Assembly: GCA_032718475.1 (NCBI GenBank) | Contig: JAUCBJ010006431.1 | Span: forward strand, 1 to 36,677 | Source of the DNA: Nemertoderma westbladi | Lineage: Eukaryota; Animalia; Xenacoelomorpha | Direction: 5' to 3' | DNA length: 36,677 nucleotides | Part shown: positions 2,565 to 15,300 of the stretch, piece after piece | Numbering within the stretch: position 1 is the first letter of the stretch | Layout of the letters: each line of letters begins with the position of its first letter | Notes under the pieces: model-generated | The model's input: only the letters and a program-made list of their open reading frames with translations | Told to the model about the DNA's origin: nothing | Databases searched by the model: none | Translations under genes and position numbers: made by a program

Positions 2565-3683
2565 ATGATGACGGGGGATTGTCAAGTTCACGAAGTTGTA
2601 GATACAAACTCAACCTCAACTTCTAGCTGTACCGGCAGCAGTGACTCTATATTTATCTGTTGCGAACAGCGACTTATTTCTACTTCGAAGTGTTTAAAGG
2701 AAAGTAGTTCAAAGAATCTGGAACATCCAGATAGTGCAGAGGCCGCAAGGAATGCAAATATATCGGAATATACCGATAGTACCGGTTGTGATCCCAAACA
2801 GTCAAATGTATCGGAGACTGTCCGAGAATTGGTCTCCTTATCAACAATTATTTCCAACGAATCAACCAAACTGAGCCTGTCGTTCTGTAAGGAACCACAC
2901 CCCAGCGACTCAGACTGCGCTGCTCTGGTTGATAAATGCGAGCGGACGGCGCACCGAATGGTGTCGTTGAGTCGGCAGGTGGGCCCGGGCCAGTCGCTCA
3001 AACAGCTGATACGGGAGGCCGTCTGTGAGCTTCTGGACAACCTTGCCAGGTTTATGGGCCTGTTGTCCGGTGGGGGGCCGTTCACTCCCCACCAGCACAC
3101 CGGAATGGTGTGGAAAAGTTGTCGAGCGTTTGCTAAATTACCTACAAGTCACGCAGAGGCGGTTGTGAGACTAGTGGACTCGTCGAGGTGTTTAGTAGCG
3201 GATGCGTTGAAGGAGTTAGAGGATTGTGTGAAAGACGAGATTACGGAGATTGTAGAAGAGGTGGAAGACGAAGCATGGAGTTCCTACGATAAGGATTTAG
3301 TATCTAATAGTGTAGGTTTAATTAAAGTAATCGTGAATGTGTTAAAGAAGACGTCGCAATCAATATCCTCAAAAGGATATGTTGATTCCGACTCTGACCA
3401 ACTGGATATCACTAACAAACTATCAGCGGAGATCAGCAATCTTGTTGACGACTTCGTCATCTCTCTGTATCCTCCGCTGCGTTACGACAACGTGAGCGGC
3501 TCAGCCGAGACTCTCGCTAATGATGTGAGACAACTTCTGGCCCATCTGAGGGGCTGTTACTTTGTCGATACTGCCGATAGTAAATGGTTGGATTTTTTAG
3601 ATAAAGCAGTGGATCACAACTTGGTGAAGGTTAGGCAGGACGCTGGCCGGGTGAAGTCCTACAGACAAACAGATGACGGGTGA
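2565..3683 (+). CDS. CCNDBP1: Cyclin-D1-binding protein 1 (GCIP/HHM/MAID) homolog, single exon, 372 aa
   Basis: Motifs recognised from the family: ISNESTKLSLSF, TGMVWKSC, LVADALKELE followed by an acidic stretch and EAWS, LVDDFVISLYPPL, and WLDFLDKAVDHN. The ORF is uninterrupted. Confidence 0.9.
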   Translation: MMTGDCQVHEVVDTNSTSTSSCTGSSDSIFICCEQRLISTSKCLKESSSKNLEHPDSAEAARNANISEYTDSTGCDPKQSNVSETVRELVSLSTIISNESTKLSLSFCKEPHPSDSDCAALVDKCERTAHRMVSLSRQVGPGQSLKQLIREAVCELLDNLARFMGLLSGGGPFTPHQHTGMVWKSCRAFAKLPTSHAEAVVRLVDSSRCLVADALKELEDCVKDEITEIVEEVEDEAWSSYDKDLVSNSVGLIKVIVNVLKKTSQSISSKGYVDSDSDQLDITNKLSAEISNLVDDFVISLYPPLRYDNVSGSAETLANDVRQLLAHLRGCYFVDTADSKWLDFLDKAVDHNLVKVRQDAGRVKSYRQTDDG

Positions 3684-5613: not shown

Positions 5614-6810
5614 ATGGCAGAGAAGCTAGTGAAGAAGAGAAAGTCGGAGAAGAGCGGGAAGGATCTACTAGTGGATTTCACGTTGAGACATCCGGAGAAT
5701 AAGAGGGGCGGATACATGGTCCGAGACGATGAGGGGACTGTAGAGGATGATGAAGGGGTTTGGAGCCACTTGTGGCAGAGGAAGTAGAGGAGAATGAGTT
5801 CGGGGAGATGTCACCGATAGAGAGGATCGGCCGGGCGGACACGGACTGGGTGGACGGGAGAGTGGTGACAGCCAGCGGGGTGAGAGCGTTCTGGGACGCA
5901 CCTGGCAAGCGAGCCTGGAAGCACGGGGAGCCGGCAATAAACTTCCCAGCAAACATGATTCGGCTAGGCGAGCAACCGGGGACGGCACCACAAGTAGTGT
6001 TTGGGGAGAAGAAGGAGATCGACATGGGTAGGGACGATAAGGTGGAAATGTTCACCTATCAGCAGCTCCATAGACCCATGAGGCTACATGGAGCCAAGGA
6101 CGAGTTAGGGCGACAGACAGTGATAGATAGTTGAGACTAATGTGGGAGACTAACCCATCAGCAGAAGAATTGTCTGTATCGCTACCAGAAGGTGGCGACT
6201 TGTCTATATTGCCACAAGTCTACCCATAGGATGGGCGCGTACCCGAGACTGCACCATAGGTGTACAAAGTGTAAGTTTAGGGGGCATTTTGAGCGCCAGT
6301 GCGACTGGGTGGATGATGAGGAGAAGTTCCATATTTACGAGGACTAGGACGACGTAGGAGTCATGACTAGGCAAAGGATGAAGGCCCAGGAGTTCCGGTG
6401 GTGGTTTTTCAACATTAACCTACAGGCCCACCAGGAGATTACCAAGAGGAGACTACCATTCATATATCAGGAGGTAGCGACAGCGGCATCATATGGAGGG
6501 GTTATTAACACCCAAAGATATCTTGACAGATGGTCGCCAGAGAACAGGATGGAATTCAGGAACTTTCTGGTGGAGCATGTGCCATGTGGAATGAAGATCA
6601 TCATATGGGACGCTACCAGAGGGAAGCAGGAGGGACACTCAGTGGGACCGCCAGCGAAACGATACCGTGAAATGATAACGCCCGCGCCCAAGGATCCAAC
6701 TATGGGCTTGGCAAAACGGTATCAGCGCGGATGAGTAGCCTCAAGAACAAACAGGAGGAAAGAAAACGCCTGAGGTAGGACGATTATAGGGGCAACGAGA
6801 TGAGATGGTT
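5614..6810 (+). pseudogene. Decayed gag/ORF1-like protein with three CCHC zinc knuckles (copy 1)
   Basis: ATG at 5614 (MAEKLVKKRK...) and a frameshift near 5760. One frame then joins ORFs 5760-6134 and 6363-6734 through stops at 6132, 6138 and 6345. Knuckles: *D*CGRLTHQQKNC (6132-6173), CLYCHKSTHRMGAY (6201-6242), CTKCKFRGHFERQC (6261-6302). TAG 6345 is TGG in copy 2. Confidence 0.7.
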
Positions 6811-7956: not shown

Positions 7957-8511
7957 CTGCACCATAGGTGTACGAAGTGTAAGTTTAGGGGGCATTTCGA
8001 GCGCCAGTGTGACTGGATGGAAGATGATGAGAAGTTCCGTATCTACGGGGACTGGGCCGACATTGGAGTCATGACCAGACAGAGGATAAAGGCCCAGGAG
8101 TTCCGGTGGGGGTTCTTTAACATCAACCAACAGGCCCACCAGGAGATTACCAGGAGGAGACTGCCATTCACCTACCAGGAGGTAGCGACAGCGGCATCAC
8201 ATGGAGGGGTTATTAACACCCAAAGGAACCTCGACAGGTGGTCGCCAGAGAATAGGATGGAGTTCAGGAGGAACATATACCGTGTGCCATGAAGATCATC
8301 ATGTGGGACGCTACCAGAGGAAAGCTGGAGGGACACTCAGTGGGACCGCCAGCCAAACGATACCGCGAGATGATAACGGCCGCACCAAGGGATCCAACTA
8401 CAGGCCACAAGGGTTGGCAAAGCTGTATCGACACGGATGCGTACCCTGTAGAACAAACAGGAGGAAAAGAAGCGCACGAGACAGGGAGGCCTTTAGGACG
8501 ACATGAGATGG
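7957..8511 (+). pseudogene. Second, 5'-truncated copy of the zinc-knuckle gag-like ORF
   Basis: Colinear with ~6249-6808, with knuckle CTKCKFRGHFERQC starting at 7969. A 10-bp deletion near 8270 shifts the frame, splitting it into ORFs 7918-8292 and 8289-8588. It runs directly into the satellite. Confidence 0.75.
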
Positions 8512-10687
8512 AGTCTGTTAACTCAATCTTGAGATTGTGCGACATGAGTCGGAGTCTGTTAACTCATTCTGGAGATTGTGCGTCATGAGTCGGATTGTGT
8601 TAACTCAATTTGGATATTGTATGACTTGAGATGAATTCTGTTAACTTAATCCAGAGAGTGCACGACATGAGATGGAGTCTGTTAACTCAATTCGGAGATT
8701 GTACGACATGAGACGGAGTCTGTTAACTCATTCTGGAGATTGTATGACATGATATGGAGTCTGTTAACTCAATCTGGAGATTGTATGACATGATATGGAG
8801 TCTGTTAACTCAATCTGGAGATTGTATGACATGAGATGGAGTCTGTTAACTCAATCCGGAGATTATGCGACAAGAGACGGAGTCCGTTAACTCAATTCGA
8901 AGATTGTATGACATGAGATGAATTCTGTTAACTCAATCCAGAGATTGTACGACATGAGACGGAGTCTGTTAACTCAATCTTGAGATTGTGCGACATGAGT
9001 TGGAGTCTGTTAACTCAATCTGGAGATTGTATGACATGATATGGAGTCTGTTAACTCAATCTGGAGATTGTATGACATGATATGGAGTCTGTTAACTCAA
9101 TCTGGAGATTGTATGACATGAGATGGAGTATGTTAACTCAATCCGGAGATTGTGCGACATGAGATGAAGTCTGTTAACTCAATCTTGAGATTGTGCGACA
9201 TGAGTCGGAGTCTGTTAACTTATTCTGGAGATTGTGCGACATGAGTCGGAGTCTGTTAACTCAATCCGGATATTGTATGACATGATATGGAGTCGGTTAA
9301 CTCAATTCGGAGATTGTGCGACATGAGATGGTGTCTGTTAACTCAATCTTGAGATTGTGCGACATGAGTCGGAGTCTGTTAACTCAATCTGGAGATTGTA
9401 TGACATGATATGGAGTCTGTTAACTCAATCTGGAGATTGTATGACATGATATGGAGTCTGTTAACTCAATCTGGAGATTGTATGACATGAGATGGAGTAT
9501 GTTAACTCAATCCGGAGATTATGCGAAATGAGACGGAGTCTGTTAACTCAATTCGGAGATTGTATGACATGAGATGAATTCTGTTAACTCAATCCAGAGA
9601 TTGTACGACATGAGATGGAGTCTGTTAACTCAATCTTGAGATTGTGCGACATGAGTCGAAGTCTGTTAACTCATTCTGGAGATTGTGCGACATGAGCCGG
9701 AGTCTGTTAACTCAATCCGGATATTGTATGACATGATATGGAGTCGGTTAACTCAATTCGGAGATTGTGCGACATGAGATGGTGTCTGTTAACTCAATCT
9801 TGAGATTGTGCGACATGAGTCAGAGTCTGTTAACTCATTCTGGAGATTGTGCGACATGAGTCGGAGTCTGTTAACTCAATCCGGATATTGTATGACATGA
9901 GATGAATTCTGTTAACTCATTCCAGAGATTGTACAACATGAGACGGAGTCTGTTAACTTAATCCGGAGATTGTGCGACATGAGATGGAGTCTGTTAACTC
10001 ATTCTGAAGATTGTGCACATGAGTCGGAGTCTGTCAACTCATTCTGGAGATTGTGCGACATGAGTCGGAGTCTGTTAACTCAATCCGGATATTGTATGAC
10101 ATAAGATGAATTCTGTTAACTCAATCCAGAGATTGTACGACATGAGTTGGAGTCTGTTAACTCAATTTGGAGATTGTGCGACATGAGTCGGAGTCTGTTA
10201 ACTCAATCTGGAGATTGTATGACATGATATGGAGTCTGTTAACTCAATCTGGAGATTGTATGGCATGATATGGAGTCTGTTAACTCAATCTGGAGATTGT
10301 ATGAAATGATATAGAGTAGCTGTTAACTCAATCTGGAGATTGTATGGCATGATATGGAGTCTGTTAACTCAATCTGGAGATTGTATGACATAAGATTAAT
10401 TCTGTTAACTCAATCCAGAGATTGTACGACATGAGACGGAGTCTGTTAACTCAATTTGGAGATTGTGCGACATGAGTCGGAGTCTGTTAACTCAATCTGG
10501 AGATTGTGCGACATGAGTCGGAGTCTGTTAACTCAATCTGGAGATTGTATGACATGATATGGAATTGTTAACTCAATCTGGAGATTGTGCGACATGAGTC
10601 GGAGTCTGTTAACTCAATCTGGAGATTGTATGACATGATATGGAGTCTGTTACTCAATCTGGAGATTGTATGACATGATATGGAGTA
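8498..10687. repeat. 41-bp satellite, left block
   Basis: Consensus GGAGTCTGTTAACTCAATCTGGAGATTGT(A/G)(T/C)GACATGA(TAT/GTC/GAT). Period is 41 bp (e.g. 8715 to 8756). The first units are the most diverged. Confidence 0.98.
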
Positions 10688-11242
10688 TTAAATTAAATTA
10701 AGTTTTAAATTAAGTAATTAAGTTCTTTCGATGACCCTAGGGGTCGAGAAATATTTTGGGCTAAATGTCCTGATTCTATATTTTTTATTGGGGGTGTAAG
10801 ACTCCTGTTCTTCCTTTAATTTAATTTAATATATATGTTCTTTCGATGACCCTAGGGGTCGAGAAATATTTTGGGCTAAATGTCCTGATTCTATATTTTT
10901 TATTGGGGGTGTAAGACTCCTGTTCTTCCTTTAATTTAATTTAATATATACATACCAACCCCCTGTTAGTCAGTATGTCGTTAACATCAATTATCATCTT
11001 ATGAAAGTGGAGCAGAATTCCGACATTACTGCAAATCATAAAATCTTATTTAAATTTTATACTGTGTGTGTGCCCTAGCATTCCACCAGTTTCCCATTGG
11101 TAACATATTTACTTACCATAGGCCTATAGGGTTCCTGTGTTCTGTGGTCTGACTTCTGTTTTGGGCTAGGTGGTAACAGAGTTGATGGTGCGATTATTTT
11201 AGGTCATTGGTGCATTATAGATAGGCTTGGCTAATTCCCTGT

Positions 11243-11296
11243 CCAGCTGACGAGGTGTCGAGGATTAGCGCGTACTGGTCCAAGACACCGAAACGC
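11243..11296 (+). ncRNA. Hammerhead ribozyme core, unit 1 (atypical arrangement)
   Basis: CCAG-CTGACGA (11247-53), stem II GGTGTC (11254-59)/GACACC (11284-89), GAAA (11290-93), then CGC. Confidence 0.65.
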
Positions 11297-11909
11297 AACA
11301 CAAATTAATTATTTTTGCCTCAGTCATACCCCTTTCACGGCGACAAAATTGTCATATATTTTCTTATAGAATATAGGCTTAGCTATTGTGCAGTTTATTA
11401 ACGGTATCATTTAGTGTATGGCGGTTAGGGTTAGGGTTGCGACACATACCTGTATGTTTAGCATGTATTTATATTTGTTTGTGTTTGTGTTTGTGTGTTT
11501 GTTGTTCTTTCGATGACCCTAGGGGTCGAGAAATATTTTGGGCTAAATGTCCTGATTCTATATTTTTTATTGGGGGTGTAAGACTCCTGTTCTTCCTTTA
11601 ATTTAATTTAATATATACATACCAACCCCCTGTTAGTCAGTATGTCGTTAACATCAATTATCATCTTATGAAAGTGGAGCAGAATTCCGACATTACTGCA
11701 AATCATAAAATCTTATTTAAATTTTATACTGTGTGTGTGCCCTAGCATTCCACCAGTTTCCCATTGGTAACATATTTACTTACCATAGGCCTATAGGGTT
11801 CCTGTGTTCTGTGGTCTGACTTCTGTTTTGGGCTAGGTGGTAACAGAGTTGATGGTGCGATTATTTTAGGTCATTGGTGCATTATAGATAGGCTTGGCTA
11901 ATTCCCTGT

Positions 11910-11963
11910 CCAGCTGACGAGGTGTCGAGGATTAGCGCGTACTGGTCCAAGACACCGAAACGC
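11910..11963 (+). ncRNA. Hammerhead ribozyme core, unit 2 (identical to unit 1)
   Basis: CTGACGA at 11914-20, GGTGTC...GACACC, GAAA at 11957-60, then CGC. Confidence 0.65.
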
Positions 11964-12344
11964 AACCATATTTTTCACAAATTAATTATTTTTGCCTCAG
12001 TCATACCCCTTTCACGGCGACAAAATTGTCATATATTTTCTTATAGAATATAGGCTTAGCTATTGTGCAGTTTATTAACGGTATCATTTAGTGTATGGCG
12101 GTTAGGGTTAGGGTTGCGACACATACCTGTATGTTTAGCATGTATTTATATTTGTTTGTGTTTGTGTTTGTGTGTTTGTTGTTCTTTCGATGACCCTAGG
12201 GGTCGAGAAATATTTTGGGCTAAATGTCCTGATTCTATATTTTTTATTGGGGGTGTAAGACTCCTGTTCTTCCTTTAATTTAATTTAATATATACATACC
12301 AACCCCCTGTTAGTCAGTATGTCGTTAACATCAATTATCATCTT

Positions 12345-15300
12345 ATGATATGGAGTAGCTGTTAACTCAATCTGGAGATTGTATGGCATGATATGGAGTC
12401 TGTTAACTCAATCTGGAGATTGTATGACATGATATGGAGTAGCTGTTAACTCAATCTGGAGATTGTATGGCATGATATGGAGTCTGTTAACTCAATTCGG
12501 AGATTGTATGACATGAGATGAATTCTGTTAACTCAATCCAGAGATTGTACGACATGAGATAGAGTCTGTTAACTCAATCTTGAGATTGTGCGACATGAGT
12601 CGGAGTCTGTTAACTTATTTTGGAGATTGTGCGACATGAGCCGGAGTCTGTTAACTCAATCCGGATATTGTATGACATGATATGGAGTCGGTTAACTCAA
12701 TTCGGAGATTGTGCGACATGAGATGGTGTCTGTTAACTCAATCTTGAGATTGTGCGACATGAGTCAGAGTCTGTTAACTCATTCTGGAGATTGTGCGACA
12801 TGAGTCGGAGTCTGTTAACTCAATCCGGATATTGTATGACATGAGATGAATTCTGTTAACTCATTCCAGAGATTGTACGACATGAGACGGAGTCTGTTAA
12901 CTTAATCCGGAGATTGTGCGACATGAGATGGAGTCTGTTAACTCATTCTGAAGATTGTGCACATGAGTCGGAGTCTGTCAACTCATTCTGGAGATTGTGC
13001 GACATGAGTCGGAGTCTGTTAACTCAATCCGGATATTGTATGACATAAGATGAATTCTGTTAACTCAATCCAGAGATTGTACGACATGAGACGGAGTCTG
13101 TTAACTCAATTTGGAGATTGTGCGACATGAGTCGGAGTCTGTTAACTCAATCTGGAGATTGTATGACATGATATGGAGTCTGTTAACTCAATCTGGAGAT
13201 TGTATGACATGATATAGAGTAGCTGTTAACTCAATCTGGAGATTGTATGGCATGATATGGAGTCTGTTAACTCAATCTGGAGATTGTATGACATAAGATG
13301 AATTCTGTTAACTCAATCCAGAGATTGTACGACATGAGACGGAGTCTGTTAACTCAATTTGGAGATTGTGCGACATGAGTCGGAGTCTGTTAACTCAATC
13401 TGGAGATTGTGCGACATGAGTCGGAGTCTGTTAACTCAATCTGGAGATTGTATGACATGATATGGAGTCTGTTAACTCAATCTGGAGATTGTGCGACATG
13501 AGTCGGAGTCTGTTAACTCAATCTGGAGATTGTATGACATGATATGGAGTCTGTTAACTCAATCTGGAGATTGTATGACATGATATGGAGTAGCTGTTAA
13601 CTCAATCTGGAGATTGTATGGCATGATATGGAGTCTGTTAACTCAATCTGGAGATTGTATGACATGATATGGAGTAGCTGTTAACTCAATCTGGAGATTG
13701 TATGGCATGATATGGAGTCTGTTAACTCAATCTGGAGATTGTATGACATGATATGGAGTCTGTTAACTCAATTTGGAGATTGTATGACATGATATGGAGT
13801 CTGTTAACTCAATCTGGAGATTGTATGACATGATATGGAGTAGCTGTTAACTCAATCTGGAGATTGTATGGCATGATATGGAGTCTGTTAACTCAATCTG
13901 GAGATTGTATGACATGATATGGAGTAGCTGTTAACTCAATCTGGAGATTGTATGGCATGATATGGAGTCTGTTAACTCAATCTGGAGATTGTATGACATG
14001 ATATGGAGTCTGTTAACTCAATCTGGAGATTGCATGACATGATATGGAGTCTGTTAACTCAATCTGGAGATTGTATGACATGATATGGAGTCTGTTAACT
14101 CAATCTGGAGATTGTATGACATGATATGGAGTCTGTTAACTCAATCTTGAGATTGTGCGACATGAGTCGAAGTCTGTTAACTCATTCTGGAGATTGTGCG
14201 CCATGAGTCGGAGTCTGTTAACTCAATCCGTATATTGTATGACATGAGATGGAGTCTGTTAACTCAATTCGGAGATTGTGCGACATGAAATGAAGTCTGT
14301 TAACTCAATCTTGAGATTGTGCGACATGAGTCGGAGTCTGTTAACTTATTTTGGAGATTGTGCGACATGAGCCGGAGTCTGTTAACTCAATCCGGATATT
14401 GTATGACATGATATGGAGTCGGTTAACTCAATTCGGAGATTGTGCGACATGATATGGTGTCTGTTAACTCAATCTTGAGATTGTGCGACATGAGTCAGAG
14501 TCTGTTAACTCATTCTGGAGATTGTGCGACATGAGTCGGAGTCTGTTAACTCAATCCGGATATTGTATGACATGAGATGAATTCTGTTAACTCATTCCAG
14601 AGATTGTACAACATGAGACGGAGTCTGTTAACTTAATCCGGAGATTGTGCGACATGAGATGGAGTCTGTTAACTCATTCTGAAGATTGTGCACATGAGTC
14701 GGAGTCTGTAAACTCATTCTGGAGATTGTGCGACATGAGTCGGAGTCTGTTAACTCAATCCGGATATTGTATGACATAAGATGAATTCTGTTAACTCAAT
14801 CCAGAGATTGTACGACATGAGTTGGAGTCTGTTAACTCAATTTGGAGATTGTGCGACATGAGTCGGAGTCTGTTAACTCAATCTGGAGATTGTATGACAT
14901 GATATGGAGTCTGTTAACTCAATCTGGAGATTGTATGACATGATATAGAGTATCTGTTAACTCAATCTGGAGATTGTATGGCATGATATGGAGTCTGTTA
15001 ACTCAATCTGGAGATTGTATGACATAAGATGAATTCTGTTAACTCAATCCAGAGATTGTACGACATGAGACGGAGTCTGTTAACTCAATTTGGAGATTGT
15101 GCGACATGAGTCGGAGTCTGTTAACTCAATCTGGAGATTGTGCGACATGAGTCGGAGTCTGTTAACTCAATCTGGAGATTGTATGACATGATATGGAGTC
15201 TGTTAACTCAATCTGGAGATTGTGCGACATGAGTCGGAGTCTGTTAACTCAATCTGGAGATTGTATGACATGATATGGAGTCTGTTAACTCAATCTGGAG

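Follow-up and report, generated by a model that had tools for sequence, protein, structure and literature searches.

Introduction

The window (the whole stretch of 36,677 nt of Nemertoderma westbladi DNA that was analyzed) contains at positions 11243-11296 of the + strand the enzyme strands of a hammerhead ribozyme, and the cleavage strand that fits them lies between the two strands of their own stem II. The locus raises the question whether a hammerhead of this order can cut RNA and, if so, whether it would cut its own molecule or a neighboring one, or has ceased to cut altogether.

Organization of the hammerhead

Block C (11243-11253, + strand) comprises the 5' strand of stem I, CCAG (11243-11246), and the core sequence CUGACGA (11247-11253); it is followed by the 5' strand of stem II, GGUGUC (11254-11259, +), which forms 6 bp with 11284-11289. 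The strands of stem II are separated by an insert of 24 nt (11260-11283), within which block S (11270-11278, +) supplies the stem III strand GCGU, A11274 and the stem I strand CUGG. Block G (11284-11296, +) comprises the 3' strand of stem II, GACACC (11284-11289), and GAAACGC (11290-11296), i.e., GAAA and the 3' strand of stem III. A first-pass annotation of this DNA had described an enzyme strand CCAG-CUGACGA-GGUGUC-(24 nt)-GACACC-GAAACGC with a substrate GCGU-A-CUGG inside its insert, and both are present as it gave them. The blocks run from 5' to 3' in the order C, S, G, each uninterrupted. The set of conserved core nucleotides is complete (CUGANGA, GAAA and UH, with a G-C pair closing stem II and an A-U pair closing stem III), and 4, 6 and 4 Watson-Crick pairs are possible in stems I, II and III, respectively. 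An identical second hammerhead is located 667 nt downstream (11897-11963, +). Cleavage is predicted 3' of A11274, and of A11941 in the second copy, which agrees with the position proposed earlier.

Both strands of the window were searched for all six block orders, with a minimum stem length of 4 bp and a span of 120 nt. Two matches were obtained, both in the order CSG, at the copies with A11274 and A11941. The orders of types I, II and III (CGS, GSC and SCG) yielded no match in the window with stems of at least 4 bp, and no minus-strand hammerhead was found in this search. The placement outside types I, II and III that had been made in the first-pass annotation is confirmed by this result; the same order had already been published as type CSG (PMC10085705), so that the topology is not new. 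An Rfam scan of the window gave 10 matches at E-values up to 1, none of them at the ribozyme region. Regarding alternative cleavage strands for the enzyme strands, 10 sites were found within 10600-12400 (at least 3 bp, G-U pairs allowed), and both stems reach 4 bp only at the 2 internal sites. The best of the rest, at 11140, 11159 and their copies, were rejected, one stem having just 3 bp.

A further helix of 8 bp, which is absent from the earlier account, is predicted between 11230-11237 and 11262-11269 (both +). This fourth helix, which corresponds to helix 'I' of Eckert et al. 2023 (PMC10085705), would connect stems I and II at their distal ends, and 11262-11268 of its 3' strand double as the 5' arm of a competing hairpin. 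By sequence and structure the ribozyme is a member of type CSG, with cleavage as a prediction; what the DNA shows directly is the individual parts and how they pair, their tandem arrangement and the recurrence of this order in further copies.

Repeat element and insertion site

The two hammerheads reside in a tandem repeat, one complete hammerhead in each full unit. Unit 1 (10837-11503, +; 667 nt) is non-coding, and unit 2 (11504-12180, +; 677 nt) is identical to it except for a 10-nt indel directly downstream of the ribozyme. The G+C content of the unit is 38%. The full units are preceded by an AT-rich junction piece (10688-10721; 34 nt) and a partial copy of the unit start (10722-10836, +; 115 nt), and are followed by a partial copy of 168 nt (12181-12348, +), the last 4 nt of which are common to the satellite. 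The 16 nt from 10686 equal the reverse complement of 10931-10946, a low-complexity match that counts as weak evidence. The element is inserted in a 41-bp satellite array (8498-36677). A possible target-site duplication of 13 nt (10675-10687, +, with its partner at 12345-12357) is likewise weak; the 13-mer occurs 40 times in the window, the target being satellite. In unit coordinates the insertion ends at positions 1 and ~168, and the predicted cut lies at 438/439; the two left ends of the insertion coincide at position 1. The unit contains no ORF and, with the pattern used, no Pol III B box, and neither a reverse transcriptase partner nor a partner element was identified.

A hairpin with tandem G-A pairs beside a bulge (10841-10866, +) is found at the start of each unit and sits at the boundary common to the two left insertion ends; in appearance it resembles a terminal recognition stem or a k-turn. 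A short TTAGGG-like tract (11422-11440 and 12099-12117, +), which varies in length among copies in other sequencing runs, precedes the GT-rich tail with which the unit closes.

Elsewhere in the window, an intronless ORF of 372 aa (2565-3683, +) carries the GCIP_N and GCIP_C domains and represents a homologue of cyclin-D1-binding protein 1 (GCIP/CCNDBP1). All 3 of its matches at E-values up to 1e-10 were molluscan (30-33% identity), and its nearest Atlas clusters are dominated by arthropods and chordates. Judged by this gene, the host is a eukaryote and apparently an animal. Two copies, 84% identical, of a broken coding block with the zinc-knuckle-like motif CxxCxxxxHxxxxC are located at 6249-6769 and 7957-8475 (+); no Pfam match was obtained for the three ORFs scanned from these blocks, which are probably pieces of a decayed retroelement gag. 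An AT-rich palindromic 22-bp tandem repeat with terminal inverted arms (1067-1375) is possibly a small foldback or MITE-like element.

Chance estimates and variation among copies

The simplest account of the locus would be a dead type I hammerhead that has lost its 3' cleavage strand and matches its own insert by chance, an alternative already named in the first-pass annotation. The chance of finding block S was estimated from 200,000 random 24-nt inserts per background. A fitting cleavage strand with Watson-Crick pairs only was found in 52/200,000 shuffles of the insert, in 16/200,000 inserts at the composition of the unit and in 35/200,000 at even composition; with G-U pairs allowed, the corresponding numbers were 145/200,000, 187/200,000 and 137/200,000. 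Regarding the fourth helix, its length was equalled or exceeded in 722/20,000 shuffles and 42/1,828 background windows and its energy in 862/20,000 shuffles, i.e., a chance of about 4 in 100. A dead type I hammerhead would require the product of the two, 16-187/200,000 (block S) times approximately 0.04 (fourth helix). Animal repeats commonly contain dead hammerhead copies, and the 10-nt indel directly after GAAACGC would suit the loss of a strand. A normal cleavage strand at that place in other copies, which had been named as the sign of such a loss, was not among the insertions listed in 4 of 4 runs, and a diverged copy described below retains block S. Taken with the chance estimates, these observations make the dead type I hammerhead very improbable, and it can be regarded as largely refuted.

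Contigs of public sequencing runs were aligned to the element for 5 of 11 runs, of which X1, possibly the source of the window, and X3 represent one sample; substitutions were listed when they had a share of at least 2% and lay away from contig ends. The same block order without any difference was recovered from runs of other studies, namely in X4 (11889-11948 and 11919-11978) and in X5 (11867-12074), so the arrangement is not an assembly artifact. X5 may be an RNA run and is given no weight as a sign of expression. One diverged copy, contig record 28 of X4 (depth 123.4), carries C11898G, and its partner G11935 is C in the 33-nt loose end of the same record, which amounts to a compensatory change from C-G to G-C in the fourth helix. 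The length of this loose end equals the unaligned part of the record, and the pair is treated as phased. Block S, the 3' strand of stem II and GAA are intact in the loose end, and both linkers are altered; differences within ~30 nt of the aligned end are outside the list, and the rest of the fourth helix is assumed in this copy.

Seven substitutions are listed in 11880-11960, and five of them fall in the unconstrained positions (29 of the 81). The other two are the change in the fourth-helix pair and A11954G, which leaves a U-G pair in stem II. As signs of covariation there are a phased pair in the fourth helix, from a single contig, and a single change in stem II that is compatible with pairing; none was seen in stems I and III. 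Core position 7, which is a free position, changes from C to U in one loose end of X2. The first base of stem II is changed from G to C in one diverged copy, with its partner outside the visible part, and some other loose ends look degenerate. Upstream loose ends from two kinds of copy carry C11905T, by which the fourth helix would be extended; it was not counted as covariation, the partner strand not being visible. Contig ends did not cluster at the cut among the rows listed, outside of which lie 79 further loose ends.

One difference-free contig of X2 has a depth of 8265, compared with 8-14 in four contigs of that run whose flanks are long, from which we infer hundreds to thousands of copies of the element, depth not being a copy count. 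Loose ends in X2 and X4 carry different sequence upstream of 10941/12285 (unit position ~105), and judged from its sequence the repeat unit seems to be modular.

Predicted folding

The folding program considers nested structures only and leaves pseudoknots unscored, so that the active fold is neither shown nor excluded by it. For 11100-11400, the nested ensemble at equilibrium gives the competing hairpin a probability of 0.99 and stem II one of about 1.0; stems I and III and the fourth helix each have 0.00. The hairpin pairs 11262-11268 with 11275-11281 (7 bp), extends stem II and buries the cleavage strand; a hairpin of this kind had been pointed out before, and it is real in being the minimum-energy nested fold. 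Stacking energies, summed with loop costs excluded, amount to -38.8 kcal/mol in the active set of four helices and to -33.1 kcal/mol in the competing set of three. When the 3' end of the transcript lies at 11269-11280, the probability of the fourth helix is 0.73-1.0 from all 4 start points; at transcript end 11281 it falls to 0.09-0.11 for the two longest starts. Because the fourth helix dominates at 3' ends 11269-11280 and declines from 11281 onward, kinetic control of the active fold is suggested. In the cut monomer, the pairs that join the two ends have a probability of 0.84-0.88. The monomer as a whole, at -162.9 against -161.3 +/- 8.0 for 30 shuffles, folds no better than shuffled sequence.

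These results bear on a second alternative, that the element descends from a working CSG ribozyme which is now trapped in the hairpin or no longer transcribed, and that it has spread at the DNA level or as uncut or opposite-strand RNA. The dominance of the inactive hairpin in the nested ensemble and the shuffle-like structure of the monomer would be expected of such a descendant, and the diverged X4 copy, as judged by eye, retains a 6-bp version of the competing hairpin. The insertion ends lie off the cut, and the two left ends share unit position 1. An active ribozyme is nevertheless compatible with ends that lie elsewhere than at the cut, since hammerhead cleavage was not required for insertion of one Penelope-like element in vitro (PMC11167929); the same report equally lends support to spread without cutting. 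Against the loss of activity stand the core, block S and the fourth helix, which are kept or compensated in the listed variants, and the dominance of the fourth helix before the hairpin can close. On balance a trapped or silent descendant appears unlikely, if well short of negligible.

Model and significance

The reading that we prefer, with a probability of about 0.6, is that each tandem unit carries a CSG hammerhead that likely folds into a pseudoknotted ribozyme as it is transcribed and would cut its own RNA in cis after A11274 or A11941. The + strand would be transcribed through the units; the helix between 11230-11237 and 11262-11269 would form first and hold the strand that otherwise traps the cleavage site; and stems I, II and III would then close an ordinary hammerhead core, with the cut at GUA. 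Two cuts would free a monomer of 667 nt with its ends paired by the 7-bp hairpin and stem II, and the ends so paired could be offered to an RtcB-type ligase, after which the circle would be kept switched off. Finally, RNA would be copied back into the genome in trans, most plausibly by a Penelope-like reverse transcriptase. The formation of the fourth helix and the cut are the better supported steps; monomer release, circularization and reverse copying are modeled on animal retrozymes. The short stems I and III and the dominance of the inactive hairpin among nested folds weigh against the preferred reading. The unremarkable fold of the monomer and the position of the insertion ends speak against such a cycle; with ends off the cut and coincident left ends, the mobilized RNA may be of either strand and of more than one form.

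Alternatively, the CSG design may be real and the enzyme strands of one unit may cut the neighboring unit or another molecule, as in dimers of amphibian retrozymes; cleavage of the neighbor was the arrangement favored in the first-pass annotation. Stems I and III of just 4 bp and the tandem units are compatible with this, amphibian retrozymes with a weak helix III are reported to cleave better as dimers, and in the accessible parts of PMC10085705 we noticed no concentration test that excludes trans cleavage. The cleavage strand of the neighbor, however, would be buried in the same hairpin, 667 nt away, and both the connector lengths and the fourth helix agree with a CSG fold within a single molecule, for which cleavage was seen in transcripts of 77-78 nt (PMC10085705). 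Cleavage in cis is the better explanation, and trans cleavage seems distinctly improbable.

The best reading of the repeat as a whole is a non-autonomous retrozyme or Penelope-like element with a cis-acting CSG hammerhead. The CSG topology itself is already in print. In the literature searched, most subscription papers being outside the search, no report placed type CSG in a retrozyme or in the genome of an animal; the term 'type-CSG' occurs in 1 paper of that literature, and PMC13725137 and PMC11472068, in the parts accessible, only cite the 2023 work. It is possible, though we advance it tentatively and with some doubt, that this is the first CSG hammerhead tied to a cellular host and that it represents animal retrozymes with a non-circularly permuted ribozyme and a built-in switch. 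In such a switch, the strand 11262-11269 would scaffold the active knot during transcription, later splint the ends of the monomer and lock the circle off. If true, there would be a class of animal retrozymes that is invisible to type I searches. The finding also suggests that whole families escape retrozyme surveys that rely on type I descriptors. The element family should offer enough natural variation for a covariation test of the fold.

Relation to described ribozymes and retroelements

Related arrangements were sought in other sequence collections. The enzyme-strand pattern gave 6 matches in metagenome contigs, none of the 6 being related or in CSG order as judged by eye, and the full CSG pattern gave none in viral contigs and none in prokaryote genomes. 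Two of the metagenome matches (L003, 229-264, and L006, 1041-1076) appear by eye to be ordinary nested hammerheads, unrelated to the Nemertoderma element. The type-SGC hammerhead HRIMA-1 (PMC10085705) shares with this element a non-circular permutation and a helix that bridges stems I and II; it differs in block order and was described from metatranscriptomes only.

Penelope-like elements have been described with partial tandems, inverted pieces and tails of 30-40 nt (Craig et al. 2021, PMC8557442). The Nemertoderma repeat shares the partial-tandem layout, a short inverted piece and an extra piece of 30-40 nt at one end, and differs in that its unit has no ORF. Five element-specific motifs were absent from the supplement text of PMC8557442, and a sixth motif of 9 nt gave 2 matches there whose contexts looked unrelated.

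Tandem hammerhead repeats with release of monomers are known from animal retrozymes (PMC7229834; bioRxiv 10.64898/2026.07.22.740005), and in vitro the monomers of animal retrozymes are circularized by an RtcB-type ligase (Cervera and de la Pena 2020, PMC7229834). With metazoan non-LTR retrozymes the repeat has in common non-coding head-to-tail units with one hammerhead each, a G+C content of 38%, a high copy number and a unit length within the reported range of 51-972 bp. For the long target-site duplication of such elements there is a 13-nt candidate here, in a satellite where that 13-mer is frequent. Its unit is longer than the 150-450 bp given in PMC7229834, and the monomer is not unusually structured, whereas described retrozyme circles are highly paired (PMC7229834). 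All described animal retrozymes use a type I hammerhead, and type I models have served both to define and to search for them (Li et al. 2026, bioRxiv 10.64898/2026.07.22.740005); the Nemertoderma element is of type CSG. By its layout, as far as sequence can tell, the repeat is retrozyme-like and stands outside the type I criterion of that definition.

The closest comparison is with type CSG itself, a non-circular permutation described from two similar sequences found only in soil metagenome DNA (Eckert et al. 2023, PMC10085705). Both of these, CSG-1 and CSG-2, cleave at the predicted site co-transcriptionally in vitro, at 0.004 and 0.026 per min, respectively, and in their fold the sequence upstream of stem I pairs with the segment after the 5' strand of stem II to give a fourth helix of 8 bp; the authors rate the evidence for a biological role as weaker than for type SGC (PMC10085705). 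In a comparison by eye against the published alignment, the Nemertoderma element resembles CSG-1 and CSG-2 in the order C-S-G, in the intact core and in an 8-bp fourth helix in the same position. The distance from the last A of the core to the cleavage nucleotide is 20 nt in CSG-1 and in the Nemertoderma copy alike, the connector is 10 nt in both, and stems II and III together have 10 bp in both; the linker before the 3' strand of stem II is 5 nt here as in CSG-1 and CSG-2. The interval between the cut and the G of GAAA is 15 nt in the Nemertoderma copy and 16 nt in CSG-1, and the overall lengths are 67 and 66 nt, respectively. Differences were found in stems I and III (4 + 4 bp versus 6 + 5 bp in CSG-1 and CSG-2), in the cleavage triplet (GUA versus GUC) and at core position 7, which is C in the Nemertoderma copy, unlike in CSG-1 and CSG-2. 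Two RNAMotif CSG descriptors published in PMC10085705 call for a longer stem III and for U at position 7, and would miss the Nemertoderma copy on account of its C and its short stem III. The Nemertoderma copy also has a strong competing hairpin, to which CSG-1 and CSG-2 may have a counterpart, and it belongs to a high-copy repeat of what is apparently an animal genome, whereas CSG-1 and CSG-2 come from soil DNA with no host assigned. Outside the core, no sequence likeness between them was seen by eye, and a matching geometry in unrelated sequence is what structural constraint would give. Found in many copies of an animal repeat, that geometry would give type CSG a host, a likely function and support from an independent source.
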